Positions 5,929 through 63,986 of a stretch of 64,000 nucleotides of DNA are shown here, in pieces. Position 1 is the stretch's first letter. Each line of letters begins with the position of its first letter. A program made the position numbers and the translations under genes. The notes under the pieces are model-generated. The model saw only the letters and a list, made by a program, of their open reading frames with translations. It ran no database searches and was not told the origin of the DNA. The stretch covers positions 124 through 64,123 of the forward strand of contig JACRJP010000003.1 of NCBI GenBank assembly GCA_016215455.1. Direction: 5' to 3'. Source of the DNA: Candidatus Tayloriibacteriota bacterium (GTDB lineage Bacteria > Patescibacteriota > Minisyncoccia > Phycocordibacterales > PALSA-1337).

Positions 5929-6813
5929 TTAATTACCAAGCAGCTTCATAAAGGTTATTGGATCGATAGAAACTCCTTGAACCTTAACCGAGATATGCAA
6001 ATGAGCACCTTCAGCGTATCCAGTTTTACCTGACAATCCAATTTCCTGACCTCGCACAACTCTCTCTCCTTCTCTAACTTTTATCTTTGAAAGATGTAAA
6101 TAGAGGGTCACAATTCCTTGCCCATGGTCAATAGCTATTAAATTACCGTACGCTCGAAATTCACGTGCCAATCGAACAACTCCATCATTCATCGCAATCA
6201 CAGAAGTTCCTTCTGCTGCACGAAAATCTGTACCCTTGTGAGCAATGAGTGACGTACCAGTTACTCGTGAATATCCATACGTATCAGTAACAAAAATATC
6301 TTTAATAGGATATATAAAATTTTTACTCCACAAACGAGTAGAGGTACTGATAATATTTCGTAAAACTTCAGCTTCAGTATTGAGTGACTGAATAAGTTTC
6401 TTTTCTGCTTCTTTAGTATTACCTCCAAGTTGTTGTGGTATACCGAGAGGTGCCTCTACCTTTTTACGAGCAATAATTTTGAGTGTAGTTGAGGTGGCTG
6501 TACCATCAACAAAAAATACTGTCACCGGATAGTTCCCTGTCTTAGCTGCAAGATCAATACCTCCAATAGCGGTAGATTGGTCTTTGTATAGGAAAGTAGC
6601 AAGAGTCTTATTTTGAAATACAACCTTCTTTATATTCTCACTACTTGTCCCAGTTACAGCAACAAGAAAAGGTTCCCCTTGTAAAGATTGTTCTGGTTCA
6701 AGTCTTACAGCAAATACAACCGGACTTGAAGAGGTTGCTACATGTACCGGTACCTGATGTTGCTGATTAAGACCAAATAACGAGGCAAGAAAAATTATGA
6801 TAGATGAGAACAT
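5929..6813 (-). CDS. M23 family (LytM-like) peptidoglycan endopeptidase, secreted
   Basis: N-terminal signal peptide. C-terminal HKGTDFRAAEGTSV...DHGQGIVTLYLHLSKIKV...GKTGYAEGAHLHISV, matching the HxxxD / HxH zinc motifs of peptidase M23. Confidence 0.8.
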   Translation of the reverse strand: MFSSIIIFLASLFGLNQQHQVPVHVATSSSPVVFAVRLEPEQSLQGEPFLVAVTGTSSENIKKVVFQNKTLATFLYKDQSTAIGGIDLAAKTGNYPVTVFFVDGTATSTTLKIIARKKVEAPLGIPQQLGGNTKEAEKKLIQSLNTEAEVLRNIISTSTRLWSKNFIYPIKDIFVTDTYGYSRVTGTSLIAHKGTDFRAAEGTSVIAMNDGVVRLAREFRAYGNLIAIDHGQGIVTLYLHLSKIKVREGERVVRGQEIGLSGKTGYAEGAHLHISVKVQGVSIDPITFMKLLGN

Positions 6814-6862
6814 ATATCACAGTATACTCTGTTTCTCTATCTATGTTAAAATTTATTCACTT

Positions 6863-7876
6863 ATGACACACAAAAGATTTTTGAAAGGAAGTATCGCTCT
6901 TGTATTTAGTATTGCAATGACAATCCCCTCTGTAACCGAAGCTGCATCTGTTTGTATTAATATTCCTTTCAATCTTGCTGTTGGTGCAACAAACTCAGCA
7001 TCACAAAACAATGTAGGAATTCTTCAAAACTATCTCGTTAAAGAAGGCTATCTTGTAACAAAATCTTTTGGACGCTTTGGACCAGCTACCGAAGACGCTG
7101 TGAAAAAATTCCAACGAGCTCACAATATCAGTGCGAGCGGTTTCGTGGGACCTATTACTCGATCTGCACTCAAGTCTCTTACCTGCTCTACACCTTCCCC
7201 TGTCTCAACTCCAGTAACATCTCCACTACCCGCAACGACTACTCCTATATCAGTAAAACCAACAGGCACTCCTTTAGTCGTCACCTATCCTCAAACAAAT
7301 CGTTCATTTACTATCGCTGATCAATTATCAATTACCTGGACAGGACCAAAGAATGATTCAGTTGATATCATTCTCGAAGACAGCAATGGCGTAGCAGTTG
7401 GACACATTGCTTCAAATCTTTATAACGTCAATCATTTTTCATGGAAAGTTGGTGATATCTCAACAAACGGAAGCTCTCAAGATACTCTAAGTGAGCCAGG
7501 AGTATACAAGATTCGTGTTCGTAGTACTCTAAAAGGTCAACAAGCGGGAGACGCGACAAGTGCACTTATCACCATCAATGCGATACCTCTCTATATACGT
7601 TCAATATCTCCTGCTTCAGTTCCAGCTGATGGAAAAACAACCGCTATTATCCAAGGTAATGGCTTCAACAATCTTTCTTCTGTCCGACTCGGTGGAGATA
7701 GAGGAACACGAATAAGTGCAACATACATCTCTCCTGATGGAAAAATGATGTCATTCTATATTCCTACATATATAGAGCCGGGAGCTTACGATATTAGAGT
7801 ACGTAATAGTTACACTGTAGCAAGTACAACACTAAGTAATCCAGTATCACTCATCGTGACAGGAGCTTCTAATTAA
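6863..7876 (+). CDS. Secreted protein with N-terminal peptidoglycan-binding domain (PG_binding_1), Pro/Thr linker and IPT/TIG Ig-like domain
   Basis: Start chosen at MTHKRF (signal peptide ...TEAAS). LQNYLVKEGYL...GRFGPATEDAVKKFQRAHNISASGFVGPITRSALKSL is a PG_binding_1 signature. C-terminal ISPASVPADGKTTAIIQGNGF...IRVRNS fits IPT/TIG. Confidence 0.6.
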   Translation: MTHKRFLKGSIALVFSIAMTIPSVTEAASVCINIPFNLAVGATNSASQNNVGILQNYLVKEGYLVTKSFGRFGPATEDAVKKFQRAHNISASGFVGPITRSALKSLTCSTPSPVSTPVTSPLPATTTPISVKPTGTPLVVTYPQTNRSFTIADQLSITWTGPKNDSVDIILEDSNGVAVGHIASNLYNVNHFSWKVGDISTNGSSQDTLSEPGVYKIRVRSTLKGQQAGDATSALITINAIPLYIRSISPASVPADGKTTAIIQGNGFNNLSSVRLGGDRGTRISATYISPDGKMMSFYIPTYIEPGAYDIRVRNSYTVASTTLSNPVSLIVTGASN

Positions 7877-17175: not shown

Positions 17176-20100
17176 TTAATACGTAACTGATCGTAGTATC
17201 ATCTTGCGTGTAATTGGACCGAAATAACCAACAGCGGGTGTAATATTGTTAGCCTTCTGATAACGCACAAGTGCCGCGCGGGTAGCTGGACCAAAATAGA
17301 AAGTTTCATTCCCTGGTGAACCATACCCGGTAGTACTCACAACAAATCCTTGTGAATTCAAAAACTGCTGCAGTATACGTACATCAGCACCAGAAGAATT
17401 CAAAGTAAGACTACGCACAAAGGTAGTAGGTTTAATAGATGGTGAAACAATTTTAGCAGTAGCAACTACTTGAGGTATAGAACTAGTAACCTCTATTGTT
17501 TTGGTCGCTGTAGAATTAACCCGCTCACCTGCTCTACCTCCACCAGAACGTGACGGGGATACAGTTGGTGTTGAAACTGGAGCAGCAGCTGATACTGTAA
17601 GAGTAAATTCTTGAGTATGGTAGAAAGTTTGAGCAGCAGAGAGTGTATCAATGATTTTCACCCGGATCGTTGAAGAAGTGGCAGAAGTTGGAGTACCGGT
17701 AATGCTACCTGTACTCGTATTAAGAGAAAGACCTTCAGGAAGCGTTCCTGAGACGAGTTCGTATGTAACCGTTCCTTGAGAGGAGGTGGCAGTGAAACCT
17801 CCGGAATATGCGGTACCTACAGTACCCGAAGAAAGAGTATCTGAAGCGAAATCAATCATATTAAAGAGAAGGATGCGGCCATAACTATCACTTACAAAGA
17901 GTGTACGGGTAGTTGACGCAAAACTAATGGAACGATTACCATCAAATGAACTGGCTGAGAGCGTACTTTGACCCGTCTGAGTGAAATTTGGTTTACCAAT
18001 AACTGCTACAGCATTTTCTCCATTACTTATCGAATTCACATCAAAAACCATAATGCGATAGTTCCCATTACTACCTGTTGAATCCGATACGTACAGAATT
18101 TTATTCTCATTATCAAATGCCAGATCTTCAACCAACTCAAACTTACTCTGTGTGGTACCTATCGTTGCAGTAGTAAAATTACTTTGTCCCAAAACATACG
18201 ACGCAGACATACCGGTGCTGATACCCGAACTTAAATCGTATACCATAACACGATTCGAATCTCCAATATACAAATAATGAGAGTCCGGATCATACACTGC
18301 ACCATTTGTATTACTCAATGTATCAGCTGTCGGATATCCTCCGGTACCAGCTCCCGTAAGACTTCCTTCACCGAGAACAAAGGAAGCGGGCATATCAGTA
18401 CTCACTCCATCTGAAATATCAAATACGAGCACACCTCGACCCTGATTGTGATCGAAAACGTACAGATAATCATTGTAGTCATCCACTACTACATTATAGG
18501 GATAAAACCGAGTAGCACTCTCTCCTCCACCATATGTATTGAAACTACTTGCCCCAAGTATGTAGGAAGCATTCATGCCGGTGGTAATCCCTGAAGAAAG
18601 ATCGAAGACTCGTATACCGTACTGATTGCCTCCTTCTTGAACAAATAGTAATTTCTGTTTTGAGCTATAGGCAATGTGTTGAGCGTTCGACAAGTGATCT
18701 GGAGTCGTGCTTCCTATTCCTTCTCTATATATAGAGTCAGAACCGAGCACATAATCCGCAACTTTATTAAGGAGTCTGTTATTCGTATCAAGGTTAAAAA
18801 CAAGGACTCGAGCCTGACCATCAAGTACGAATAGACGGTGATCAACCTCATCAATAATTAACTGAGCAGTATCAAGAAAACCCAAACTTAAATTTGCATC
18901 ATTCTCTGCTGGTTTGGTGAAAGAATCTACACCGTTTTCTTTTTGGCCCAATACATCAACAGCATCTTCCCCATTAGTAATTGATGCTACGTCAAAAACA
19001 AGAACTCTGTTGCTTCCTGAATCAGTAACAAAAAGTTTACTTCCATAATAATGCAAATATGGCTGACCTATTGTCGAAGCATCAGTATTGTACGAATCAA
19101 TACTCAGGACATCGTTCTTCTTATCAATATTGCTCACAAAATCATCTTGACCCAATACATTAACCGCTGGTTCACCATCGCTCAAGGTAGCGATATCAAA
19201 GACTAAAACACGATTCACCGTCCCGACATAGAGTCTTTGTCCTATCAAATCAAGAGCAAGTGAATATACCGAACTTGAAAGTGTCGAACTATTGACCGTA
19301 GTACTTGTTGCAGCAAAATTCGCCTGACCGAGCACATAGATTGCATCAGGATTATTCGATATAATGCCAGGATTAACATCGAATACAGTAACTCGACCAC
19401 CATCACCTGCATAGCTTCCTACGTAGAGATAATCTGTATCTGTGTCGTATACGATACCTTGTGCCTGAAGGGTTGAACTGGCATTAAGAGAATCAAAATC
19501 TCCACCTTCAGTATCAAAATCGGGCTGTCCTATTACAAATGAAGCATCCATTCCATCAGTAATTCCCACCGACAGATCAAATACTGAAATTCTTCCAAAG
19601 CTATTATCAGCATAAAAAAGGCGATCATTATTTGGGTCATATGCCATTCCACCTGTATATGAAGTATTTGAAGCTGAAATCGTACCCTCTCCTGCTGTAG
19701 TAAGGTTTGGTGCACCAAGCACATGTATAGCATTTTCACCATTTGTAATGGTAGCGACATCAAATATCAGAACTCTATAGTTACCACTATCGCTCACAAA
19801 AAGTCTTTGACCTGATTCATCAAGTGCTAATTGTGTCGAAGCACCATTTTGGTAAAAATTTGCAGCAGTAACATCTTCAGAACAAAAATTTGAAACAAGA
19901 TTTGACCCACCAAGAACATAGTCAGCGGTATCATCTTCAAGTTCATTGCTTGTATTAAGACTGAAGATCAATATTCTACAGTTTTGTCCATCAGCGATAT
20001 AGAGACGATGATTTGTTCCGTCAAGAACAATACCACCAGGATCACTAAATCCAACCGCATTGGGTCCTTTACCATATGAATATTGATTTGTGAAATTCGG

Positions 20101-20214
20101 ACTTCCGTCTGAATTAAATTGCCCAAGTACATCAGAAGCTTGAAAATCAGCACGGGATTCTATGGGTAAAACGGACACAAACAACAGAATTAAAAAGATA
20201 AACAATCTGTACAT
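17176..20214 (-). CDS. Large secreted NHL-repeat beta-propeller protein with He_PIG Ig-like domain and C-terminal peptidoglycan-binding domain
   Basis: 1012 aa. Signal peptide. About 10 or more NHL-like repeats (NHRLYIADGQNCRILIFSL, GQRLFVSDSGNYRVLIFDV, DRLFYADNSFGRISVFDL...). SGTLPEGLSLNTSTGSITGTPT (He_PIG). Ser/Thr/Pro linker. C-terminal ADVRILQQFLNSQGF...GPATRAALVRYQKANNITPAVGYFGPITRKMI = PG_binding_1. Confidence 0.7.
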   Translation of the reverse strand: MYRLFIFLILLFVSVLPIESRADFQASDVLGQFNSDGSPNFTNQYSYGKGPNAVGFSDPGGIVLDGTNHRLYIADGQNCRILIFSLNTSNELEDDTADYVLGGSNLVSNFCSEDVTAANFYQNGASTQLALDESGQRLFVSDSGNYRVLIFDVATITNGENAIHVLGAPNLTTAGEGTISASNTSYTGGMAYDPNNDRLFYADNSFGRISVFDLSVGITDGMDASFVIGQPDFDTEGGDFDSLNASSTLQAQGIVYDTDTDYLYVGSYAGDGGRVTVFDVNPGIISNNPDAIYVLGQANFAATSTTVNSSTLSSSVYSLALDLIGQRLYVGTVNRVLVFDIATLSDGEPAVNVLGQDDFVSNIDKKNDVLSIDSYNTDASTIGQPYLHYYGSKLFVTDSGSNRVLVFDVASITNGEDAVDVLGQKENGVDSFTKPAENDANLSLGFLDTAQLIIDEVDHRLFVLDGQARVLVFNLDTNNRLLNKVADYVLGSDSIYREGIGSTTPDHLSNAQHIAYSSKQKLLFVQEGGNQYGIRVFDLSSGITTGMNASYILGASSFNTYGGGESATRFYPYNVVVDDYNDYLYVFDHNQGRGVLVFDISDGVSTDMPASFVLGEGSLTGAGTGGYPTADTLSNTNGAVYDPDSHYLYIGDSNRVMVYDLSSGISTGMSASYVLGQSNFTTATIGTTQSKFELVEDLAFDNENKILYVSDSTGSNGNYRIMVFDVNSISNGENAVAVIGKPNFTQTGQSTLSASSFDGNRSISFASTTRTLFVSDSYGRILLFNMIDFASDTLSSGTVGTAYSGGFTATSSQGTVTYELVSGTLPEGLSLNTSTGSITGTPTSATSSTIRVKIIDTLSAAQTFYHTQEFTLTVSAAAPVSTPTVSPSRSGGGRAGERVNSTATKTIEVTSSIPQVVATAKIVSPSIKPTTFVRSLTLNSSGADVRILQQFLNSQGFVVSTTGYGSPGNETFYFGPATRAALVRYQKANNITPAVGYFGPITRKMILRSVTY

Positions 20215-39807: not shown

Positions 39808-40248
39808 ATGAACCTCCCTTTGTTCCTCAAATTTGCATTAATCGGCGGCATCCTTTATGGCATCGCAAATCCGTTTATGGGCAAAGCCCAGGCGGGTGGC
39901 TTGAATGCTGCCGCTACGGTAGTAATGGCTGCGATCGGCCAGCTGATCATCGGGATTGTGTTTGGAGGATTGAAAAGCTCCATCGCACACCCAGGCGGCT
40001 CAGCCGTCGCGATTGCGGTTGGAATTGCCTGGGGCTTCGGAGCCTTATGTATCAACCAGGCCATGAATCCTGCCCTAAAACCAGTCTATAGCCTAGCAGG
40101 CTTCGGTCTTAGTCTCATCCCTTTTATCAGCGCCATCGTTGCGATGGTCATGTTCAAAGAATGGGACAAGATTGTCTGGACCAAGTTCATTGGAGGAGGT
40201 TCTCTCCTCCTAACGGGACTTTGGCTCATCAGCAACTGCAAAAAGTAG
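39808..40248 (+). CDS. Small 4-TM membrane protein (EamA/DMT-half-like), GC-rich
   Basis: 146 aa. Four hydrophobic helices. Codon usage is GC-rich compared with neighbours. Followed by an intrinsic terminator. Confidence 0.5.
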   Translation: MNLPLFLKFALIGGILYGIANPFMGKAQAGGLNAAATVVMAAIGQLIIGIVFGGLKSSIAHPGGSAVAIAVGIAWGFGALCINQAMNPALKPVYSLAGFGLSLIPFISAIVAMVMFKEWDKIVWTKFIGGGSLLLTGLWLISNCKK

Positions 40249-40266
40249 TTCGCCTACAAAGCGAAC

Positions 40267-40304
40267 CAGCGTCAGGATCTTCGGAACCTGACGCTTTTGC
40301 TTTT
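40267..40304 (+). terminator. Rho-independent terminator
   Basis: GCGTCAGG-ATCTTCGGAA-CCTGACGC followed by TTTTGCTTTT. Confidence 0.6.
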
Positions 40305-40368
40305 ATGTAACATTGACTTATACAAATAAGTATTGTAATTTATATTTGGACAACATCTTAGCTGAATT

Positions 40369-40992
40369 GTGAGCAAACTCTTAATCGTTCACGGGTACGA
40401 AGTGTATCCCGACCACACGATGTCCCCTCAAGCGACAGCGGTATGCAATAAAGTATTCGCTTTGAAGGACAACTACGACATCTTTCTCCTCATCGGAGGC
40501 TGGCACAATCCAACCCTTGGAATCAGAACAACTCTTGGTTGTGTCATGGCTGAACAACTTGTCAAAAAAGGTCTCGATCGTCACAGGATCTTTACCCACT
40601 TCAAACCTCCTGGTCACAACAAAAATATTCCACATCTTGTTCCACCTCGTGACACAATGGTGGAAGTGGATTGCCTCCCCTGGTATTTCAGGGCTCTTGG
40701 TCACCCTAATCCCAAGAAGGTAAAGTTTGACGCTGTGTGTGGAGGAATCTATTGGCCACGAACTCGATTCCTGTATGCTCTACGAGGTGCCAACCTTGGT
40801 AAACTCCATCCAGCATGGAGTTTGAGCCAAGAAGATCATCAGTATGCGCTTCAGCAAATTCCAGGTATACTCCTTACCGCAATGGATCCTCGAGGAGAAG
40901 GTAGGTTCTTTACGAAGCTTCGTCAGAAACGAACACCGGCAGGTTCGGAGAAGTGTCACTTTGCTCACGCTACTCCAATTGGCTGGACATAA
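40369..40992 (+). CDS. Hypothetical protein (possibly DUF218/YdcF-like)
   Basis: LLIVHG...FLLIGGWHNP is loosely reminiscent of DUF218. Weak. Confidence 0.3.
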   Translation: MSKLLIVHGYEVYPDHTMSPQATAVCNKVFALKDNYDIFLLIGGWHNPTLGIRTTLGCVMAEQLVKKGLDRHRIFTHFKPPGHNKNIPHLVPPRDTMVEVDCLPWYFRALGHPNPKKVKFDAVCGGIYWPRTRFLYALRGANLGKLHPAWSLSQEDHQYALQQIPGILLTAMDPRGEGRFFTKLRQKRTPAGSEKCHFAHATPIGWT

Positions 40993-46624: not shown

Positions 46625-47596
46625 TTACTTACCGGGAGGCGGCGTGGCGTAATTCAATTGAATCCACCGATAGAAATTGGCTCGCTCAGTATCGCTTTGA
46701 CCGTGTGCCGAACACCATTCCGTCGCAAGGTCCGTAAGAATACTGAGGAACAAGGTGTCGCGATCTATACGACTAAGGCGACGCCCTAAATGCGTATCCA
46801 CAGTTTGAATGTCAGCTGGTTGAATCTGTTGCAACAATCGTTCAATCGAAGAAGCTGGGTATTTCTTGACCATCTTCCTAATCAAATCATAGTAGCCTGG
46901 ATGAGCAAACTCTATGACCGACGAGGTTACTCGATGCATATCCATTTCCTCAAGCCACCGATTAGGTGAATCGGGACCAGGGACAGCAATTCCATTTTCA
47001 CGATTATGTCGCAAGGCATGCCCGAGCTCATGGAAAAGAGTCCCTGCAAAAATTACTTCATCAAAATTGCGAGCAGGACATACCACAGCACTAAGATCGG
47101 TACGCCACATTGGCGTATCAATCCGTGCTACCACACCAAGATCTGCTTTGGTAAAAAAGAAGAAACGAACAAGTCCATTACTCCTTACCATATCAACATT
47201 CTCGTGAGGAGCAATGAGATCAGATCCTTGATTACCCTGTGCGACTCCAACACGAAAATCTTTGAAACGCTCGTATATCTTTTCCGTCTCAGGAGTAGCT
47301 TTGGCATACTTCGCCAAGAGTTGCTGAATTTCAACTTTCTTCGAGGTGTAGAGATCGAACGAAGCTTTGTTGGCAGGTGGCATATTTTCAAGCCACCACG
47401 TTCCATACTGCCCCATATCGACATATCCACGATAGAGCATTTCCACGTGTGCAGCCGTTTTTTGCGTTGCACGATACTGATACATTCGCCATACAGGCCG
47501 AAAGAACAGTGATCCAATAATCAAAGTCATCAATCCACCCCACACCCACCAAGACATATACCAAGGTGTCGGGTACTGAGCTGCTTTCTTTCTCAT
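46625..47596 (-). CDS. Membrane-anchored HExxH zinc metallopeptidase-like protein
   Basis: N-terminal TM (WWVWGGLMTLIIGSLFF). GTLFHELGHAL zincin motif. Confidence 0.5.
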   Translation of the reverse strand: MRKKAAQYPTPWYMSWWVWGGLMTLIIGSLFFRPVWRMYQYRATQKTAAHVEMLYRGYVDMGQYGTWWLENMPPANKASFDLYTSKKVEIQQLLAKYAKATPETEKIYERFKDFRVGVAQGNQGSDLIAPHENVDMVRSNGLVRFFFFTKADLGVVARIDTPMWRTDLSAVVCPARNFDEVIFAGTLFHELGHALRHNRENGIAVPGPDSPNRWLEEMDMHRVTSSVIEFAHPGYYDLIRKMVKKYPASSIERLLQQIQPADIQTVDTHLGRRLSRIDRDTLFLSILTDLATEWCSAHGQSDTERANFYRWIQLNYATPPPGK

Positions 47597-54081: not shown

Positions 54082-54151
54082 ATGTGTGATGTAACGAGTA
54101 TATCCACAAATTCCTTTGCTGGCAAAAGCATATCACGTATATACTGTACAC

Positions 54152-54619
54152 ATGCCTACAGACATCACATCCATTCTTATCGGTGCTCTCATACTATGTG
54201 TCATCATTCTTGCGACACTCGTCATTCGACTTGAAATCAAACTCAAGCGCTTTTTAGTTGCAAAAGGTGCAGTATCAATCGATGACTCTCTCACCAAACT
54301 CTCTAGTGACACAAAAGAATTACAAACCTTCCGTACCGAACTCGAAAGCTATCTCAAGACTGTCGAAAAGCGTCTACGACGAAGTGTTCAATCAATTCAT
54401 ACTATTCGTTTCAATCCATTCAAAGGAACAGGAAGTGGTGGTAACCAAAGTTTTGCGACTGCATTTATGAATGAAGATGGTGACGGTGTTGTTATTTCAA
54501 GTCTCTACTCACGAGAACATGTGAGTGTCTTCTCAAAACCTGTTAAAAAGTCTGCATCTGAATACGAACTCACTGTTGAGGAAAAAACAGCGCTCACGGA
54601 AGCAAAAAAGACTCTCTAG
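54152..54619 (+). CDS. DUF4446-like membrane-anchored protein
   Basis: N-terminal TM then RFNPFKGTGSGGNQSFATAFMNEDGDGVVISSLYSREH matches my recollection of DUF4446. Confidence 0.45.
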   Translation: MPTDITSILIGALILCVIILATLVIRLEIKLKRFLVAKGAVSIDDSLTKLSSDTKELQTFRTELESYLKTVEKRLRRSVQSIHTIRFNPFKGTGSGGNQSFATAFMNEDGDGVVISSLYSREHVSVFSKPVKKSASEYELTVEEKTALTEAKKTL

Positions 54620-54627
54620 CAGCAACA

Positions 54628-54656
54628 TTGACAACTAGTCAAATATATGCTATTAT
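54628..54656 (+). promoter_or_regulatory. Sigma70-like promoter (TTGACA-N17-TATTAT) at the start of a GC-rich islet
   Basis: Exact -35, near-consensus -10. Confidence 0.4.
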
Positions 54657-54777
54657 GGCTTCGAATAGCCCTTTTACAACACGTATGGAAATACGTTGCA
54701 TTGCCGTGTGGCTGTGCATTGTTTGGGCTTTCTTTGTTAGTGAAAAGGACCTCTGAATCTACTCCCGCCATGACTCC

Positions 54778-54958
54778 CCAAAAACTTCTCATTACCCTTT
54801 GTGTGTTGGGTGCCGCAATCATCACTGTGATGGTCGTCACTCCGAAGCGTCAGGTTGTCGCAGGACAACCCGCTGTCACAGAAACCAACATCATCAATCT
54901 CAAGGCTCACGCGACTGTGAGCTTTGGAACACCAACAACGAACAACATCAATAAGTAG
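54778..54958 (+). CDS. Small signal-anchored protein (60 aa), uncertain
   Basis: MTPQKLLITLCVLGAAIITVMVV... Start chosen downstream of the promoter. The track ORF 54647..54958 begins inside the promoter. Confidence 0.25.
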
Positions 54959-55005
54959 TCCTCAACAAGCATCACAAGCAACGCAACCTCTCAACAAATC
55001 CCACA

Positions 55006-56130
55006 ATGAAACTCAATACCGTCCTGGCCAAGCTTGCCTTGGCACTCGCCCTCATCACCATGTCCGCCACGACTCGCTCCCTCGCGATCGAGTCTGTCGA
55101 GTCCTCATCGCGCCCAGCTGTGGAAGCCATCCCGCTTCCCACGCATCTGGCACCCTTCCTCCGCACGGAGGAAGACCTGATCGCGTTTCTCAGCCTGATG
55201 CAGCGGTCGGTCAGTTACGGGCTTTCAGCCAATAGCGGACAGACCTGGGAGAACAGTTCGGGTCGCAAGGTCTGGACTCAAGCTCCCTCGCAACAGGAAA
55301 TCATCGATACCATCGAGGCATCGAACCTCAACATCGGCGTGTTGAACCCGAACGATCGTGTGTCCTTCTGGACCTACACCTACGACGGACAGGGACGTCC
55401 TTTGTTCAGCGCCGGCGACTCAAAGTTGCCATTCAACGACAAAGGTGGTTGGAGTTTGCCCGAGTTCCATCTGAACTTCCGGCCCTACTACCAGTTCCCC
55501 CTGCCGCGCTACGAAGGCGTTTATGCGGCCGAGATCCTGGCAACCGACGCCCAAGGCCGCACCCGCGACCAGGAATGGTTCAACCAAGACGACGACGGCG
55601 TGATCCTGATGGACAGCTACCTCGCCAGGAAAAACCTCACTGGGTTCCTCGTCTTCCACATGGAGGACGGTTCCTCGCGGAGCTATGACCTCACAACGGG
55701 CAACGAAGTGTCCCAGACCAATCTGACGGCCGGAGCGAAGGCTTCGTTCGACGGCTCGGTCTCCTTCAAGGACGAAAACATCGTGCTCAAGCTCGACAGC
55801 GAGAACGGAATTGGCGAAAAGAAAAACGTTCAACTCCGCACGACGGTCAAAGGGACCTACAAAATCAAAGTCAGCACCGCGGAGGGCAAGTATCCCTTGC
55901 ACTACCGCGTGTATGCCGAAGAGAATGGCGTCATTGCAGCTGACAACATCCACTACGGCGAGAACGAAAACGGACAGACCGGAATCGAACTCGACTTCCC
56001 GATCGGCCTCTTTACCTTTGTGCCGGTCTGGAACGTGGCCGATTTCCGCGAACCGGGCGACTGCCCGCCGGGCTACACATGCTCGGGCGACGGTTACGGC
56101 AAGGGTGTGGTGGAACCCGCCACCAAGTAA
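55006..56130 (+). CDS. GC-rich secreted hypothetical protein (signal peptide; no recognisable domain), likely horizontally acquired
   Basis: 374 aa. Signal peptide MKLNTVLAKLALALALITMSATTRSLA. About 58% GC with GC3-rich codons, unlike flanking genes. Followed by an intrinsic terminator. Confidence 0.6.
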   Translation: MKLNTVLAKLALALALITMSATTRSLAIESVESSSRPAVEAIPLPTHLAPFLRTEEDLIAFLSLMQRSVSYGLSANSGQTWENSSGRKVWTQAPSQQEIIDTIEASNLNIGVLNPNDRVSFWTYTYDGQGRPLFSAGDSKLPFNDKGGWSLPEFHLNFRPYYQFPLPRYEGVYAAEILATDAQGRTRDQEWFNQDDDGVILMDSYLARKNLTGFLVFHMEDGSSRSYDLTTGNEVSQTNLTAGAKASFDGSVSFKDENIVLKLDSENGIGEKKNVQLRTTVKGTYKIKVSTAEGKYPLHYRVYAEENGVIAADNIHYGENENGQTGIELDFPIGLFTFVPVWNVADFREPGDCPPGYTCSGDGYGKGVVEPATK

Positions 56131-56184
56131 CGGGTGGATCCATACGTGAAGAAGTGAAGACCATCCTTCGGGATGAGTCTGCGA

Positions 56185-56225
56185 AGCGCCGCGGAGACAA
56201 TACATCCACGGCGCCTTTTATTTTC
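56185..56225 (+). terminator. Rho-independent terminator
   Basis: GCGCCG-CGGAGACAATACATCCA-CGGCGC followed by CTTTTATTTT. Confidence 0.6.
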
Positions 56226-56281
56226 ATAATCTATAGATTAAACTTCTAAAAAGTTGATAAAAAGCCATTTTTCTGGTACTG

Positions 56282-57832
56282 TTGTACCCACGTATGGCTC
56301 AATCTCCTACTCCAAAAAACAAAGCAAATAAGTCCGTGGTGACAGGAAGCACCATACCTCGTCCACCGGTGGTTGTTGTCATGGGTCACATCGACCACGG
56401 CAAATCTACCCTTCTCGACTTTATCCGCAAAGCAAACGTTGTTGCAGGTGAAGCAGGTGGAATTACACAACACCTCGGTGCATATGAAGTTCACCACACA
56501 ACAGCTGAAGGCAAGGCTGGTGTTATTACTTTTCTTGATACTCCTGGCCACGAAGCATTTTGTGATATTCGAACTCGAGGATCACAAGTCGCAGATATCG
56601 CTGTGCTTGTTGTCTCTGCAGAAGATGGTGTGAAGCCACAAACACTTGAAGCTCTCTCATGCATCAAAGCAGAAGAACTTCCGTACGTTGTTGCGATTAA
56701 TAAAATCGACAAACCCGGAGCAAATATTGAACGAACAAAACAAAATCTCGCAGAACATGAAATATATGTTGAAGGTTACGGAGGAGATATCCCTGTTGTT
56801 CCAATTTCAGCCCTTACAGGTCAAGGTGTTCCTGAGCTTCTCGACATGCTCATTCTCGTTGCAGAACTCGAAAATCTTTCAGGAGATCCTACAGCGGTAG
56901 CATCAGGTGCTGTGATCGAAGGTAGTCTTCATCCAAAGAAAGGTATCTCTGCCTCCCTTCTCATCAAGAATGGAACTCTTCGTGTCGGAACTTTCGTTGT
57001 TGCACACGACGCAATTTCTCCAGTTCGTATTCTTGAAGATCATCTTGGTAAGGCAGTTAAGGAAGCAACATTCTCAAGTCCTGTAAAAGTCATTGGCTGG
57101 GACAAACTTCCTCTTGCTGGTACACCATTCATTGTTGTCGAAAATAAAAAAGAAGCAGAAGAAATTGCTGCAAAGAATGCACAACAAAATCCTATTACAA
57201 CTGACAACACTGTCTATGCTGAAGGCACTATCGTAATTCCTATTATCATCAAAGCCGATGTTGTTGGAAGTCTCGAAGGTATTCAATTTGAACTCAAGAA
57301 AATCAAGCATGACAAGGTAAAGATCAAGATCATCGCAGCAGGTATTGGTGAAATTAGTGAACGTGATGTTAAGGTTGCTCAAAGTACTCCCGATACTATC
57401 CTCATTGCATTCAACGTAAAGCCTGACGCAAAAGCAAAATCTCTCCTTGAACGAACCCCGATCAATGTTCAGTCATTTAATGTAATCTACAACATCACTG
57501 AATATCTCCAAAAGCTCGCTACTTCAAAAATTCCAAAGGAATACATCGACCAGTCTATTGGTAAAGCCAAAATTCTTCAGGTATTTAGTAAAAATAAGGA
57601 CAAACAGATTGTTGGAGGTAAAGTGCAAGAAGGAGAAATTCGACTTGGTGGTGAAGTAAAGATTCTCCGACGTGATATTGAAATTGGTCGTGGTCGTATT
57701 AAGGAACTTCAGCAACAAAAAGTTAAAGCACAAGAAGTTCGTGAAGGCTATGAATTCGGTACTCTCATCGAATCAAAAATTGAGATAGCTCAGGGCGATA
57801 AAGTGGAATGTTTTGAAACTGTAGAAAAATAA
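56282..57832 (+). CDS. infB: Translation initiation factor IF-2 (short form, G-domain onward)
   Basis: [16 protein letters not shown] (G1), DTPGHEAF (G3), NKID (G4). C-terminal beta-barrel domains. 516 aa, lacking long N-terminal domains. Confidence 0.9.
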
Positions 57833-57845
57833 GTATAATAACCCC

Positions 57846-58178
57846 ATGTCAGAGAAAGATGAACGATTAAAGGATGTATTGAAGACTCTTGCCGCTGAAT
57901 TTGTTCAGCGAGAGTCGAATGGTATCTCCCTTATCACTATCACTGACGTTGCAATCGCAGATCGTGGAGGTCGTGCAACTATTTACTTTACCGTACTACC
58001 TGAAGACAAAGTAAAAGGTGTACTCGACTTCTTGAAGCGTAAGCGTGCTGAATTTCGTGACTATGTCACTGAAAAATCACGCATTGGTCGTATTCCTTTT
58101 TTCGATTTCGCACTGGATATCGGAGAAAAGAATCGACAGCGCATCGACGAGATTTCAGGTACCATCGCAGCAAATTGA
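57846..58178 (+). CDS. rbfA: Ribosome-binding factor A
   Basis: 110 aa. RLKDVLKTLAAEFVQRE...ITITDVAIADRGGRATIYFTVL. KH-like RbfA pattern. Follows infB as in the nusA-infB-rbfA operon. Confidence 0.75.
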   Translation: MSEKDERLKDVLKTLAAEFVQRESNGISLITITDVAIADRGGRATIYFTVLPEDKVKGVLDFLKRKRAEFRDYVTEKSRIGRIPFFDFALDIGEKNRQRIDEISGTIAAN

Positions 58179-59121: not shown

Positions 59122-59751
59122 ATGAAACCTGCATCACCTCTCTGTGTCCAGGCCTTTACAAAACCTGGTCAGTCTCGTCGGATCCGCAATGCAGCAGCTG
59201 CTCAAATGAGCCCTCTCAGGCGAGCCCTGCACAAGCAACACCTCGGGTATTTTAACCCGGCGACACTCCATGATCACAAGTGCGCTCAATACGCGCGACT
59301 TCTCAACGAATACATTCGTGCGAAAGTGCCCCTCATCAAAGGTTTTGGTGATTGGATCTTTTTGGGAACCCTTCTGGTCTGCAGCCTGACGTTGGGGTAT
59401 AACGGGTATTTTCTTTGGTCGCTTGGTTTTCTTTCAATCATGACGTTGACTCTTTGGAGCTCTTACACTTCTCGCCAAAAAGCGGCCTATCGAGAATTTG
59501 TTCGGTTGTATAACTGGCAAGAAGCATCTCTCTACCGATCGAGATGCTTCGCCTGCCCTAGGGTTGACGAATTGATCGAATCTCTCGAAAACTACTTCGA
59601 GGTCCACTGTCCAACAGCTGTGATGCGTATCGAGTTTCTTGGGCCCGACCCGATTCTCTGGGTCATGGACCACGAAACTCACGAAAAATACGCGATTGCG
59701 GCATGGAAAGATCCTAACGATCCTACCCCGATCATTGCTCGGGTGTGGTAA
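59122..59751 (+). CDS. GC-rich hypothetical protein with two TM helices, between tRNA genes (start uncertain)
   Basis: About 55% GC. Hydrophobic helices (DWIFLGTLLVCSLTLGY, FLWSLGFLSIMTLTLW). No known domain. Confidence 0.35.
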   Translation: MKPASPLCVQAFTKPGQSRRIRNAAAAQMSPLRRALHKQHLGYFNPATLHDHKCAQYARLLNEYIRAKVPLIKGFGDWIFLGTLLVCSLTLGYNGYFLWSLGFLSIMTLTLWSSYTSRQKAAYREFVRLYNWQEASLYRSRCFACPRVDELIESLENYFEVHCPTAVMRIEFLGPDPILWVMDHETHEKYAIAAWKDPNDPTPIIARVW

Positions 59752-59879
59752 AGAGACTTCTCATGAATTCAGATGTTTGCTTTTTTATTAACACTATTCT
59801 CATAATCTTATTGCGCACATTGGTTTTTTTTGGTATATTCCACCAAGCTATTTAACAATTTGGTTTCCAAATAAAATAT

Positions 59880-59955
59880 GCACCCATAGCTCAGTTGGTA
59901 GAGCATCCGCCTCTTAAGCGGTTGGTCGTAGGTTCGAATCCTACTGGGTGCACCA
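59880..59955 (+). tRNA. tRNA-Lys (anticodon CUU), CCA encoded
   Basis: Acceptor GCACCCA/TGGGTGC, D-arm GCTC-AGTTGGTA-GAGC, anticodon loop CTCTTAA, T-loop TTCGAAT, 3' ACCA. Confidence 0.8.
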
Positions 59956-60002
59956 GGTTGTAAGAAAAGATCGGTCCGTGTTTCTAAAGTTACTACATTC
60001 AT

Positions 60003-60084
60003 ATGCCGGGATGGCGAAATTGGCAGACGCACTTGCCTTAGGAGCAAGCGGGGTAACCCATGGAGGTTCAAGTCCTCTTCCCGG
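60003..60084 (+). tRNA. tRNA-Leu (anticodon UAG), type II
   Basis: Acceptor GCCGGGA/TCCCGGC, anticodon stem CTTGC/GCAAG, loop CTTAGGA, long variable arm, T-loop TTCAAGT. Confidence 0.8.
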
Positions 60085-60172
60085 CACAATCAAGATACTC
60101 AACACTTAAAAATGGCTTCAATAAGCCATAAATTTACCTTACAACATCCATAGACATCCGCCAATAGATCTA

Positions 60173-60202
60173 TTGACATGTACCAATGTTATATGCTATA
60201 AT
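60173..60202 (+). promoter_or_regulatory. Sigma70-like promoter (TTGACA-N18-TATAAT-AGTA) followed by a hairpin-rich ~140-nt leader
   Basis: Exact hexamers. The leader 60205-60343 contains nested inverted repeats (GGTTCTCT...AGAGATCC; GAGC-ATTA-GGCTC; TCGCT-TGT-AGCGA). Confidence 0.45.
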
Positions 60203-60343
60203 AGTACCAGAAGATTGGATTAGGGGTTCTCTGAGCATTAGGCTCAGATGAGCCTACAGAGATCCTTGAAACATTCGACCTTCGACTAGTGCGTCGCTTG
60301 TAGCGATGTTAGTCAACCAAAAATTCGGTTAGCTCGACATACC

Positions 60344-61402
60344 ATGCCTACTCCTGCCGCTCCCGCCTCCCCTGCCTCGACCCCTGTCACTGGTCCGAAG
60401 TATACGGCCGCCCAAATGGCGGATAGCAACTTCCATCCGGACCAACTGAATGACAAGTCAGGGAAAAAGTTAACAGGTGGCGCTCTTGCCGCCCGTAAGG
60501 TTGCTCTCCTGGATTTCCAGGAAGCTGCACTTTCTTTTCCATCCGCTCCTGCTGCAAGCGCTGCTCCGGCAGTTCCTGCTGGAACGCCTGCCGCTACTCC
60601 TACCCTGCCGGCTACGCCCTCAGGGGGAGTTTCGCGGACCCACATCATGTGGGCGATCGTGATTCTCCTCTTGGCGTTGCTTGGACTGACTGGCTGGCTC
60701 GCAAAGTCCTACCTGGACAAGCGCACGCCTGCCGCCTCTTCACCCGTCGGTGGAGCAAGTGGTGGTCAACCTGTTGCGTCGGAAAGCAATGGGATTACTG
60801 GAATCATCCCCGCCGGCTCCGTCACGAACGTGACGGAAGACGTTGAAAAACGTCGAATCACCCTCACTGGCGACGTTCTCGTGACCAACGTCACGAAGCG
60901 GATTCACACCACTACGGTCACAAGCCCTGGTGGTGCTGGAAATCCTGGAGGGTTCATCCTGAACCAGACGATCCAGCAGTTCAACGGTAGTGGTCAATCG
61001 ACCCTTCCCACCAATGACTGTCGGACAAATCGGTTCGGCGGCGTGAATCCCAGGATGTCGCCCGAGGTTGCTCGGCTGGCCCAACAAGGCAAGCTGAAGA
61101 CCTACGAAGCATCCGAAGACGGCACCTTGCCCCAGTGTATTCATGTGCCGAGTGGTGAGGCTGCGGTGATCCTCATGCCGGAACACATGGACCTCGTCAC
61201 TCGCCAGCTCAACCGGCGCAACATTGCTGTCTACTTCGACGAGCGCACGCTCGAAGAGGAAAAGCAGCGAATCGCGAGTGGTGTTCCCTCAATCTCGGAA
61301 CGAGTCTACCTCGTCAACCGAGACCAAGGACTCACACCTGCGCAAGTCGCACTGCTGTGGAGCAACGAAGGTTCGAATGAGGGTTTGGTTGCTGCTCGAT
61401 GA
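60344..61402 (+). CDS. GC-rich Pro/Ala-rich bitopic membrane protein (cytoplasmic PA-rich N-terminus, one TM, extracytoplasmic domain)
   Basis: About 60% GC. PAAPASPASTP / APAASAAPAVPAGTPAATPTLPATP low complexity. TM IMWAIVILLLALLGLTGWLA. No known domain. Confidence 0.5.
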   Translation: MPTPAAPASPASTPVTGPKYTAAQMADSNFHPDQLNDKSGKKLTGGALAARKVALLDFQEAALSFPSAPAASAAPAVPAGTPAATPTLPATPSGGVSRTHIMWAIVILLLALLGLTGWLAKSYLDKRTPAASSPVGGASGGQPVASESNGITGIIPAGSVTNVTEDVEKRRITLTGDVLVTNVTKRIHTTTVTSPGGAGNPGGFILNQTIQQFNGSGQSTLPTNDCRTNRFGGVNPRMSPEVARLAQQGKLKTYEASEDGTLPQCIHVPSGEAAVILMPEHMDLVTRQLNRRNIAVYFDERTLEEEKQRIASGVPSISERVYLVNRDQGLTPAQVALLWSNEGSNEGLVAAR

Positions 61403-61497
61403 GCACACCTACCCTCGCAGAGGCCGCGGACAAAGTACTAGCAATAGCTACGATGTCCCCGGTCTTTTTATTTATATACAGAGCCATAGATATACTA

Positions 61498-61528
61498 TTG
61501 ACTATACAGCTCATATTATGGTATAATA
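61498..61528 (+). promoter_or_regulatory. Sigma70-like promoter (TTGACT-N19-TATAAT-AGTA)
   Basis: Same TATAATAGTA extended -10 context as the promoter at 60173. Confidence 0.35.
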
Positions 61529-61587
61529 GTATAGGAAAACAACCGAAATCAAGGCCGTGTGGTCTTTGATAACCCCATAGCGATTTT

Positions 61588-62736
61588 ATGAACACACTCG
61601 AAAGATTAGTGGAGTATCTCTACTGTCTACTCAACGGTATACCCCAGACGGTCCCTGTAAATGGAACCGTCGACAACGGTGTCGAAATATTGACGCCGTT
61701 AAACAAGGTCAAAAAGCACCCCATGAATGCTTCGTGGGTATGCGTAATAGCTGGGTGGATCACCCTCTTCCTACACGTATGGGTGCCTAAAGCATTCATT
61801 ACAGGACTCATCTACCACAAGTTTCCCTCGACTGTAAATTACGGTTCGGTTGTGGAAACACTGGGCTGGATTATTGGAGGACTGTGTTTGATTGCAGCAC
61901 TCAAGACCTACCTGTTCGAAGCCATTTTTGTGGCAACCGAAACAGGAAAAGCTCGAATCGTTGAAGGGACTTTTCTGAGCAAGATCAATCCCAAACCCTT
62001 CACCTATCAAGACACCGGCGTTGCTGGTGAACGAGAATATGTTGGACCAGGACTGAAATTTAAGTGGTTCACCAACAAAGTTGATGACAAAAAGGTAGCA
62101 AACCTCGACGTTGTCGTTCTCGATCTGATATTTACTGATCTAGTCACCAAAGACAACTATGTGGTAGGTGAAATCACCACAAGAGTGACCTATCGGACCT
62201 TGTTAGGGTTTGGTCTTCTCAGCCGCTTCACGCGTGCAACAAAAGAAGATCGCGAAAAGCTCATTAGGGCGAAGATCGAACTGTTCTTGCGGCGGGAAGT
62301 AGGTCAGTATCCCTACCTCCAGTTCATGAACTTGGCATTCAAAGAAGGCTTTACCAGCCAACTTCGCGCGAAGATGAAACAAGTCTTCGGCGGTCAAGAC
62401 TATCTGTCTGAGCTCGAGCTGCAATTGGCAATTACAACCGACAACCTCGAAGTAATCGGGTTTGTTCTCACCAAGAGACAACTTGCTGCATTTGAGACAC
62501 AACGCATTGCAGGTCTCATTGCAGAAGTGACTGAAAGATTCTACCGTCTGTGTGGTCTCAGTGACACACAGATGCCTGCAAACCTCACTCCAGATCAAGC
62601 GGCACGAATCGCCCAACAACGACTTCAAGTCATTGTCATGGTCGAACGAATGTTCGCCGATCCCAAGAAACGCCAAGACGTCATCTTTTCGGGTGGCGCT
62701 GGTGGTGTGCGGGGTGGCGGACGGATTGCAGTCTAA
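61588..62736 (+). CDS. SPFH/band-7 (stomatin/prohibitin-like) domain membrane protein
   Basis: N-terminal TM helices, then ARIVEGTFLSKINPKPFTYQDTGVAGEREYVGPGLKFKWF...ANLDVVVLDLIFTDLVTKDNYVVGEITTRVTYR typical of the SPFH core, coiled-coil region, Gly-rich C-terminus. Confidence 0.55.
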   Translation: MNTLERLVEYLYCLLNGIPQTVPVNGTVDNGVEILTPLNKVKKHPMNASWVCVIAGWITLFLHVWVPKAFITGLIYHKFPSTVNYGSVVETLGWIIGGLCLIAALKTYLFEAIFVATETGKARIVEGTFLSKINPKPFTYQDTGVAGEREYVGPGLKFKWFTNKVDDKKVANLDVVVLDLIFTDLVTKDNYVVGEITTRVTYRTLLGFGLLSRFTRATKEDREKLIRAKIELFLRREVGQYPYLQFMNLAFKEGFTSQLRAKMKQVFGGQDYLSELELQLAITTDNLEVIGFVLTKRQLAAFETQRIAGLIAEVTERFYRLCGLSDTQMPANLTPDQAARIAQQRLQVIVMVERMFADPKKRQDVIFSGGAGGVRGGGRIAV

Positions 62737-62754
62737 CCTTCAACGACACACCTT

Positions 62755-63216
62755 ATGGCAGAGGAAAAAAACTACAGAGATGACCTCAAGTCATACTCCC
62801 CCGTAATTGACTGGCTCAAAAAGGCTGTCTACTGGGGAGGCGGCATCATTACCGTCGTAGTCCTGTGGGATCTATGGACAGCAACAAAGGCTCCAAAGAG
62901 CTTCGCGGAACGCCGAGAGGTTCGTTCGGCTATCGAAGCAGGATTACCTGAAACGGTTCAAGACTTCAGAGTCGACCGAAATTGGCAGCAGAAGATTCTG
63001 GTAGGCAAAATTGCCAACTACGAATTCAATATGCTCCAAACGGGTGTCATAGGACAAGTGGTTGTGAACAACGACTTCTCTCGTGCCTACGACTTCGCTA
63101 TCGGGACGGACATTGATCTTGGATCACAACAAGTAACCTCATTGTCGTTTCGGCTTCGGCCAGACCAGGAGGTTATAGCAGCGCCGATGTATTTGCGTGT
63201 TATACGGAGACAGTAA
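62755..63216 (+). CDS. Small membrane-anchored protein, possibly NfeD-like partner of the SPFH protein
   Basis: 153 aa. One TM (VYWGGGIITVVVLWDLW) plus about 100-aa beta-rich soluble domain. Immediately downstream (18-nt gap) of the SPFH gene as in SPFH-NfeD operons. Confidence 0.3.
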   Translation: MAEEKNYRDDLKSYSPVIDWLKKAVYWGGGIITVVVLWDLWTATKAPKSFAERREVRSAIEAGLPETVQDFRVDRNWQQKILVGKIANYEFNMLQTGVIGQVVVNNDFSRAYDFAIGTDIDLGSQQVTSLSFRLRPDQEVIAAPMYLRVIRRQ

Positions 63217-63620: not shown

Positions 63621-63986
63621 TTAGCGAATACGAACGTCTGGAATTGTTGGGAACTCCTGGTAAGGAACCTGCTGGTTACTACCGAAGTTGAATGATCGTC
63701 GGAGAAGTCCTACAAGACCCCAGATAGAGAGGATGAGGAAGAGACCGATAATACCGTAGATAACCATAGTCTTTCCTTCTTTCTTCTTGTCTTCGTCACC
63801 TGCGATAATGTACACCACGATAGCATACACCAAATAGATAACAGCAAACGAAATGAAGATTGGAATAAGAGCATTACCAATACTTACAAGCTTCGCAAGC
63901 AAACTATTAACATCAGTAATTTGCTGAGCTGACGCAAGCACTGGAAACGCTGAGGCAAAAACTGCTAGACCTAAAATTTTTTTCAT
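63621..63986 (-). CDS. Small secreted two-helix membrane protein, VirB2/TrbC-pilin-like
   Basis: 121 aa. Signal peptide MKKILGLAVFASAFPVLASA, mature part starting QQ..., helix - loop (GDEDKKKEGK) - helix. Confidence 0.4.
   Translation of the reverse strand: MKKILGLAVFASAFPVLASAQQITDVNSLLAKLVSIGNALIPIFISFAVIYLVYAIVVYIIAGDEDKKKEGKTMVIYGIIGLFLILSIWGLVGLLRRSFNFGSNQQVPYQEFPTIPDVRIR

Follow-up and report, generated by a model that had tools for sequence, protein, structure and literature searches.

A GC-rich cassette between the DUF4446 gene and infB in Parcubacteria: possibly an old, fast-evolving envelope-protein operon rather than a recent import

This work concerns a GC-rich block of 1.6 kb (positions 54620-56230) in a 64,000-nt stretch of DNA, hereafter called the window, from a metagenome-assembled genome (MAG) of a Candidatus Tayloriibacteriota bacterium. 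The block is located between a gene for a DUF4446 protein and infB, which encodes the initiation factor IF-2, and comprises a promoter, a 5' leader, a small open reading frame (ORF), the gene of a 374-aa predicted secreted protein, referred to here as X, and a terminator. Composition outliers of this kind are routinely taken as signs of recent horizontal transfer or of MAG contamination. In this case the outlier rule errs: the cassette is an old resident, and its orthologues keep the anomaly in every AT-rich relative examined. The GC-richness of X is not the fading trace of a recent import. We put it at roughly an even chance that the cassette is an old, fast-evolving two-gene envelope-protein operon, native to Parcubacteria (Candidate Phyla Radiation, CPR, of the Paceibacteria/Taylorbacteria type), in which the GC-rich synonymous sites are maintained.

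The GC content of the block is 0.549, rising to 0.567 in its core (54770-56215) and to 0.583 in the coding sequence (CDS) of X, compared to 0.411 for the whole window; the block is the maximum among all 1.6-kb sliding windows (mean 0.411, standard deviation 0.038). The preliminary description of this DNA was thus right to single out a real GC-rich block; its figure of roughly 58%, on the other hand, fits the large CDS and not the full interval, for which the value is 54.9%. It was also right that the codon usage of X is GC-rich at third positions and unlike that of the host genes: the GC content of third codon positions (GC3) is 0.765 versus a median of 0.298 for 60 ORFs of the window (standard deviation 0.107), i.e. 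about 4 standard deviations over the mean. First and second codon positions (GC1 and GC2) are raised only slightly. The small ORF, too, has an elevated GC3 (0.42-0.60 in AT-rich hosts), the promoter and leader are host-like (GC 0.427), and the 3' untranslated region (UTR) with the terminator is GC-rich (0.588).

An exhaustive phmmer/HMMER search (1.84 billion sequences that represent about 15 billion proteins; cut-off E <= 1e-3) identified 90 relatives of X, nearly all of them 290-400 aa long, with P0002 (42% identity) and P0003 (37%) as the best matches. A word-indexed search of 5.8 billion proteins recovered the window protein alone, an indexed search with the 90-sequence profile returned 3 proteins from 8000 candidates scored, and a metagenome scan with the three closest proteins yielded no match. 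Looking up contigs by the exact sequence of the window protein gave no hit either. Two scans of viral contigs found no relative of X and hence no link to phages. NCBI annotates X of the window as a hypothetical protein from a MAG of Candidatus Taylorbacteria, and one further family member carries the name Candidatus Taylorbacteria. At the DNA level, 13 loci were viewed; all 13 retrieved contexts show gene content of the Parcubacteria type, and the complete architecture (promoter, leader, small ORF, large gene, hairpin followed by a T-run) is present at every locus with enough sequence.

The usual neighbourhood of the family is a conserved TopA-ParB-MiaA-Alr-ClpB-CysDes-DUF4446-infB block, represented in the window by TopA (41029), ParB (43695), MiaA (44781), Alr (47922), ClpB (49249), a trypsin-like protein (52019) and CysDes (52900). 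The gene of P0002, assembled in three different runs, has precisely the location of X in the window, between DUF4446 and infB-rbfA, and that of P0003 is directly upstream of infB-rbfA. The order DUF4446, small ORF, homologue of X, infB, rbfA recurs on four contigs (the 63-kb L082, and L083, L084 and L085) that stem from three further sequencing runs. Non-coding sequence is conserved over both borders: on the left side this concerns the promoter with the leader, on the right side the 3' UTR, the terminator and the leader of infB. The wider TopA/ParB/MiaA/Alr/ClpB block is common to the window, L082, L095 and L090, and other family members are located a few kb off in the same block, beside alr/rpmG (L081, L086, L095, L096) or near fusA (L088, L094).

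In more distant genomes the locus looks different. Among 80 species-level relatives (IF-2 45-61% identical), tblastn and the family hidden Markov model (HMM) detected no family member near infB, and in 46 of these genomes DUF4446 and infB are direct neighbours, separated by a median of about 58 nt. Judging from this gene order, the block is an insertion relative to an older arrangement, shared by a clade with IF-2 65-84% identical. The insertion between DUF4446 and infB noted in the preliminary description thus stands with respect to the distant relatives; in the closest ones, L082 and L085, the cassette is present. We propose that the cassette may have moved between DUF4446 and infB in the ancestor of a small clade (the window genome, L085 and L082) and stayed there. 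At one further locus (L003, 5352-5927) the gap between DUF4446 and infB is occupied by an unrelated 191-aa ORF on the reverse strand, which suggests that this intergenic slot took insertions more than once.

In all eight low-GC hosts (Table 1) X ranks first in GC3 among 5-11 neighbours, with a mean excess of +0.28, whereas in five hosts with GC3 of 0.48-0.82 (L091, L092, L097, L094, L096) it is on a par with the host (mean excess +0.004). Regression of the GC3 of X on that of the host gives a slope of 0.27, with equality near a GC3 of 0.67.

Table 1. GC3 of X and of its neighbours in the low-GC hosts
Locus	GC3 of X	Median GC3 of neighbours
Window	0.765	0.291
L082	0.673	0.334
L085	0.685	0.358
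L081	0.451	0.255
L086	0.649	0.361
L088	0.593	0.376
L090	0.458	0.311
L095	0.516	0.284

The age of the anomaly was gauged from the flanking genes. At four-fold degenerate sites of conserved codons in IF-2 and RbfA, the window and L085 are 52.5% identical versus 34.9% at saturation (excess 0.27), and the corresponding excess for the window and L082 is 0.18; in these comparisons the synonymous sites of the flanks are about 75-80% randomised. The GC content of four-fold sites (GC4) is 0.20-0.23 in the flanks and 0.66-0.81 in X. In a simple decay model, where every substitution draws a new base at the equilibrium frequencies of the host, so that the pairwise excess decays as exp(-2ut) and the deviation in one lineage as exp(-ut), the retention per lineage amounts to about 0.52 (L085 pair) or 0.43 (L082 pair). 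A neutral relic would then require an ancestral GC4 of about 1.2-1.3, which is impossible. Therefore, either a gene-specific force maintains the composition of X, or GC-rich alleles arrived after the lineages had split. According to the former scenario, which we prefer, this force would hold the synonymous sites of X GC-rich in AT-rich hosts. It might be either selection, acting at the level of mRNA or DNA on a transcript with very strong expression, or GC-biased conversion at a locus that recombines and diversifies.

Several observations weigh against this interpretation. The evidence at the DNA level comes from 13 of about 90 family members, and it is we who infer the surface location of X, its high expression and the force that maintains its GC content. 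The decay calculation presumes an F81-like process and neutral rates like those of the flanks. The four-fold sites of X look more saturated than the flanks, with an excess of 0.16 (L085) and 0.03 (L082) against 0.27 and 0.18 (n = 59-78), and the identity of X is discordant with that of its neighbours: L085 and L082 are 84% and 65% identical to the window in IF-2, versus 36% and 42% in X. GC-rich Parcubacteria that possess the family and in which the composition of X is host-like (L094, L096, L097) could serve as donors. Finally, the presence of other GC3-rich genes without a Pfam match in the window (39808-40992 and 59122-63216) indicates that this genome holds DNA GC-richer than its core.

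The discordance between X and its flanks fits the replacement of alleles as well as it fits fast vertical evolution. The main rival reading, possible if on balance rather unlikely, is that the coding part of a native cassette was repeatedly replaced by alleles from GC-richer Parcubacteria, which are incompletely ameliorated and renewed by further imports; the conserved promoter/leader and 3' UTR/terminator, or else the flanking genes, would act as homology arms. In agreement with such an exchange, the window and L085 diverge in the coding part only, with good conservation of the 3' UTR, the terminator and the leader of infB; close lineages differ in GC content (L088 and L094 share 83% identity in EF-G and less than 30% in X, at 42% and 55% GC of their loci, so that genomic GC appears to shift quickly among related Parcubacteria); and one cassette of L086 carries an unrelated secreted protein in a similar frame (see below). 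On the other hand, no donor allele above 42% identity exists among the representatives searched. Moreover, the offset is one-sided, being confined to the low-GC hosts, whereas symmetric exchange should yield AT-rich copies in GC-rich hosts too, and the four-fold identity of X between the window and L085 (0.43 versus 0.32 expected, n = 68) is not significantly below that of the flanks and is compatible with co-divergence. A lateral origin of the cassette from a GC-richer Parcubacterium is possible.

We find it hard to credit that the high GC3 of X is ordinary codon adaptation of a very highly expressed gene. Such adaptation would agree with the consensus-like promoter and strong terminator, and X shares a trend with the ribosomal and elongation factor (EF) genes of L086 and L088, in which C at NNY codons (0.41-0.50) and G at Lys/Glu/Gln codons (0.46-0.58) are elevated. 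However, at four-fold sites these highly expressed genes are A/T-rich (G 0.05-0.10, C 0.15-0.17), as opposed to G 0.25-0.36 and C 0.16-0.50 in X, which therefore displays a general G+C shift rather than the preferred codon set of the host; the GC-rich 3' UTR (0.59) likewise speaks against selection on codons. An envelope role alone would be insufficient for the anomaly too, since two PG_binding_1 proteins of the window (6797-7876 and 17176-20214), if correctly taken as envelope proteins, have a host-like GC3 of 0.25-0.27.

Acquired genomic islets with atypical composition are the subject of the amelioration model of Lawrence and Ochman, and the cassette resembles them in its sharp compositional contrast, its own promoter and terminator, and its absence from the locus in distant relatives. 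A single, fairly recent acquisition from a high-GC organism outside CPR, for instance an actinobacterial host as the preliminary description had suggested, would account for the GC3 of 0.765 against 0.30, for the sharp borders, and for the lack of the gene at this locus in the 80 species-level relatives. We nevertheless regard it as very improbable. None of the 13 contexts falls outside genomes of the Parcubacteria type, so that the family is confined to the lineage of the recipient, and the nearest protein, only 42% identical, comes from a genome with 41% GC. The syntenic orthologues (37-42% identity) share the anomaly: in the two closest relatives the gene occupies the same site with a GC3 of 0.673 and 0.685 against 0.33-0.36 in the flanks, despite about 75-80% randomisation of synonymous sites. 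Pfam detects no integrase or transposase family at the borders, where the flanks match DUF4446 and IF-2; the block has no direct repeats of note and no adjacent tRNA gene, the nearest one being tRNA-Cys at 58177; GC1 and GC2 are raised only slightly; and the arithmetic of neutral decay fails. Thus, of four marks of a recent island the cassette shows atypical composition, and three of them (absence in close relatives, a donor lineage, and signatures of mobility) were not found. As for the suggestion that a fragment of a GC-rich genome was joined into a CPR contig, the abrupt change of GC within a MAG is suggestive of such a chimera, whose probability is nonetheless next to nothing given the same gene order and compositional contrast in L082, L083, L084 and L085 from three other runs, with conserved non-coding sequence across both junctions.

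Candidate target-site duplications and terminal repeats of a mobile element were considered and rejected, as the direct repeats are short and at chance level. A 261-aa ORF on the reverse strand (55420-56205) is a shadow ORF of the GC-rich CDS, since it is the frame on the forward strand that has 90 homologues.

The features of the cassette are collected in Table 2. Its own promoter, a small signal-anchored ORF, a 374-aa secreted protein (secreted, that is, according to predicted features of a signal peptide) and a strong terminator had all been proposed in the preliminary description and were confirmed here.

Table 2. Features of the cassette and of its flanks, with positions in the window
Feature	Position	Strand	Remarks
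DUF4446 gene, upstream flank, host-like composition	54116..54619	+	Pfam PF14584, E 6.3e-31; GC 0.407, GC3 0.327
Sigma-70-type promoter TTGACA-N17-TATTAT with TG extended -10	54628..54656	+	Matches the consensus at 11/12 positions
5' leader, about 105 nt, host-like GC; start of transcription predicted	54663..54769	+	Fold: local hairpin ACGTAT-GGAA-ATACGT at 54682-54697
Leader box CACGTATGGA	54680..54689	+	Perfect complement of 56139-56148; 10-nt inverted repeat; 0/300 shuffles reach 10 nt
Small ORF, 62 aa: N-terminal single transmembrane helix, linker, C-terminal strand-like motif ending in ..VSFGTPTTNNINK	54770..54958	+	GC3 0.556
X, 374-aa predicted secreted protein	55006..56130	+	GC 0.583, GC3 0.765; 90 homologues; CPPGYTC motif; GYGKG tail extended to ...PATK
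Predicted Sec signal peptide of X, residues 1-27, without lipobox cysteine	55006..55086	+	By eye: K2, K9, hydrophobic core, S-L-A before I28
3' UTR box TCCATACGTG, 9 nt past the stop codon	56139..56148	+	Complementary to the leader box
Intrinsic terminator, hairpin GCGCCG.GGA...TCC.CGGCGC, then TTTTATTTT	56186..56223	+	-16.8 kcal/mol, hairpin 56186-56214
infB (IF-2), downstream flank, host-like GC3 of 0.282	56282..57832	+	Pfam GTP_EFTU, IF-2, EF-G_D2

The start codon of infB is likely the ATG at 56294. The layout TTGAC[AT]...TGnTAnnAT also precedes the cassette elsewhere, as judged from an alignment of 7 upstream regions (alignment A3) and from regular-expression matches at 10 loci; in general, the promoters of the cassettes conform to TTGAC[AT]-N17-TAnnnT, with TG in most of them, and the leaders are 100-150 nt long. 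The terminator hairpin has a 9-nt loop and an internal mismatch, and was missed by a simple scanner with a loop limit of 8; its stem is kept in L085, and a similar GC-rich hairpin with a T-run follows the gene at every locus.

In 13 cassettes the large gene is immediately preceded by a homologous small ORF (49-93 aa), which likewise encodes the N-terminal transmembrane helix. These proteins have a variable linker and a C-terminal stretch of alternating hydrophobic residues that ends by a conserved Phe, and many of them terminate in K. A longer, 103-aa version of the small ORF in the window (ATG 54647) was rejected, as its start falls within the promoter spacer. At L086 (7520-10900) there are two tandem cassettes, whose small ORFs (78 and 90 aa) are homologous, whose promoters are similar and whose terminator hairpins are almost the same. 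The family HMM does not detect the second large protein (361 aa, hydrophobic at its N-terminus), which means that cargo can change within the cassette frame. P0004 (238 aa) from L095 (3546-4550) turned out to be a truncated gene call, the full ORF having a normal signal peptide and a score of 349 bits with the family HMM.

The signal peptide of X would be cleaved after S-L-A, and by a heuristic criterion 81 of the 90 family members possess a run of at least 10 hydrophobic or small residues in the first 40 aa. An AlphaFold2 (AF2) model of X calculated with the 90-sequence alignment (A1) attained a predicted local distance difference test (pLDDT) score of 88.4 and a predicted template modelling (pTM) score of 0.70, with a short helix followed by beta strands throughout, and is consistent with an all-beta fold of several sandwich domains; a model from the single sequence (pLDDT 41) was useless. 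The C-termini are characteristic: 40 of the 90 sequences end exactly in ...KG, and Lys is present among the last three residues in 54 (12% expected). In the window GYGKG is followed by VVEPATK, and X of the window and its two closest relatives end in ...TK. The Pfam scan of the cassette proteins gave no significant match, and none of the 90 members has a family match in Pfam, NCBIfam or the PDB sequence profile; in particular, Pfam and NCBIfam reveal no anchoring modules (SLH, CWB2, PG_binding, LysM) in them. An RHS/YD-repeat assignment was rejected, as it relied on a lone sub-threshold match (17.2 bits, cut-off 22, residues 112-132) in one of the 90 members, and so was a lipoprotein reading of X, which lacks a lipobox cysteine. 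Our literature search turned up no paper on the X family or on S-layer genes of CPR.

To judge from the sequence comparisons, X evolves approximately six times faster than the flanking IF-2, and this may well be because the protein is exposed. We propose that X leaves the cytoplasm through Sec and remains at the cell surface, where it would be retained by its small membrane partner and/or by the conserved Lys-containing C-terminal tail, and that it may diversify fast through exposure to hosts or phages.

Among known systems, the operons of S-layer and other surface proteins of Gram-positive bacteria, such as slpA of Lactobacillus, combine a strong promoter and terminator with a 5' UTR that is long and structured. 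The cassette is similar to them in being autonomous and monocistron-like, in its consensus promoter, strong terminator and leader of about 100 nt, and in its beta-rich, fast-evolving product with predicted Sec export. However, X has no known anchoring domain, is small by S-layer standards (374 aa), and is always paired with a small transmembrane protein. The Braun lipoprotein (Lpp) is anchored via its C-terminal lysine by L,D-transpeptidases, which recalls the Lys at or near the C-terminus in 54 of the 90 X proteins and the terminal K of many small partners. In contrast to Lpp, X has neither a lipobox nor a coiled coil, and its lysine is penultimate in most members; no gene with a YkuD (L,D-transpeptidase) domain was found among the ORFs scanned in the window. 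Attachment of X via the C-terminal lysine would thus be pure conjecture by analogy. Further near systems are the beta-sandwich domains of the pre-peptidase C-terminal (PPC)/collagen-binding type and the accessory one of GH30 enzymes. All in all, the description that suits the cassette best is that of an envelope-protein operon, lineage-specific and uncharacterised, whose compositional signature is unusual and conserved.

It is tempting to go further, although we consider the following extension doubtful as a whole. The cassette might represent a Parcubacteria-wide envelope module of a mini membrane protein and a fast-evolving secreted protein that is built of several Ig-like domains and ends in a G-K-G/Lys tail. 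Its synonymous GC would be actively held against the strong AT mutational pressure in these reduced genomes (by selection on the mRNA of a very abundant surface protein, or by GC-biased conversion at a hot spot of recombination), expression would be controlled with the help of pairing between the leader and the 3' UTR, and the product would serve these ultra-small cells as their main surface (S-layer-like) or host-contact protein, with its terminal lysine as a possible link to the wall.

The pairing invoked above refers to the two complementary boxes of Table 2. In L082 they read ACACGTATGAA and TTCATACGTGT, so that a G-to-A change is offset by a C-to-T change, i.e. compensated with respect to the window. 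The sequence CCATACGTG is retained past the stop codon in L085, and is found in L082 as TCATACGTG. L081 and L093 possess other 11-nt leader/3' UTR pairs, of which that in L081 covers the ribosome-binding site of the small ORF. Perfect complementarity of at least 10 nt was found in 4 of 14 cognate leader/3' UTR pairs versus 2 of 182 non-cognate ones, and in all four complementary cassettes the 3' partner is situated 1-9 nt past the stop codon. A comparison of duplex energies reached only weak significance (p = 0.027), and in most cassettes no such complementarity is seen. The first 40 nt of the leader in the window are nearly identical in L082, and the hairpin survives one change of G-C to G-U; a conserved fold of the whole leader is unsupported (z -1.0 versus shuffles), as the window and L082 share the first hairpin only. 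Apart from a chance-level match to the greA leader (E 0.74), the cassette has no Rfam match.

The complementarity could reflect pairing between the 5' and 3' ends of the mRNA, acting on its stability or translation. In the icaR mRNA of Staphylococcus aureus the 3' UTR reportedly pairs with the 5' UTR/Shine-Dalgarno region, and the cassettes are reminiscent of it in the 10-11 nt complementarity of leader and 3' UTR in 4 of 14 cases, including L081 with its covered ribosome-binding site. Unlike in icaR, the leader partner in the window is about 90 nt upstream of the start codon and lies in a local hairpin, away from the ribosome-binding site, and the complementarity is limited to a subset of the cassettes. 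Alternatively, the boxes could be short inverted repeats of an invertible DNA segment with the promoter outside. The boxes form a 10-bp inverted repeat, with the promoter located beyond it; all 13 assembled loci share one orientation, and no site-specific recombinase was found among the ORFs scanned in the window. The start region of infB (56285-56297, CCCACGTATGGCT) holds CACGTATGG as in the leader of the cassette, and is thereby complementary to the 3' UTR box about 150 nt upstream; ACGTATGG is kept at L085 (about 1310-1325) and absent in L082. This likeness between the infB start and the leader box could be due to chance, or to read-through transcripts linked to the translation of infB.

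Automated filters for horizontal gene transfer or contamination would wrongly flag or drop this cassette. If it is true that a gene-specific force holds its GC content, the cassette offers a natural test case for mRNA selection versus GC-biased conversion in bacteria. Parcubacteria are uncultured and thought to be attached to hosts, and their envelope is uncharacterised; X proteins are candidate components of their cell surface, and the conserved promoter, partner protein and C-terminal motif make the cassette searchable in metaproteomes.

The window contains further GC-rich genes. A second block at 59122-63216 (46-54% GC in 1-kb windows) comprises four ORFs with GC3 of 0.51-0.59 and without a significant Pfam match; it is located among four tRNA genes (58177, 58933, 59880 and 60005) and is followed by a gene with a T4SS-pilin domain (63621-63986; PF18895, E 2e-11). 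It resembles a true mobile-element island more closely than does the block at 54620-56230. A 146-aa polytopic membrane protein (39808-40248, GC3 0.60) is preceded by TTGACT-N17-TATAAT, and a 207-aa hypothetical protein (40369-40992, GC3 0.44) by TTGACT-N17-TGTAAT, and neither has a match in Pfam. GC3-rich, lineage-specific genes with their own promoter may thus form a wider class in this genome. Lastly, a 323-aa hypothetical protein without a Pfam match, encoded on the reverse strand (46625-47596, GC3 0.42) downstream of TTGACT...TATAT, has an N-terminal hydrophobic segment and a HELGH motif, and is possibly a zinc metalloprotease.

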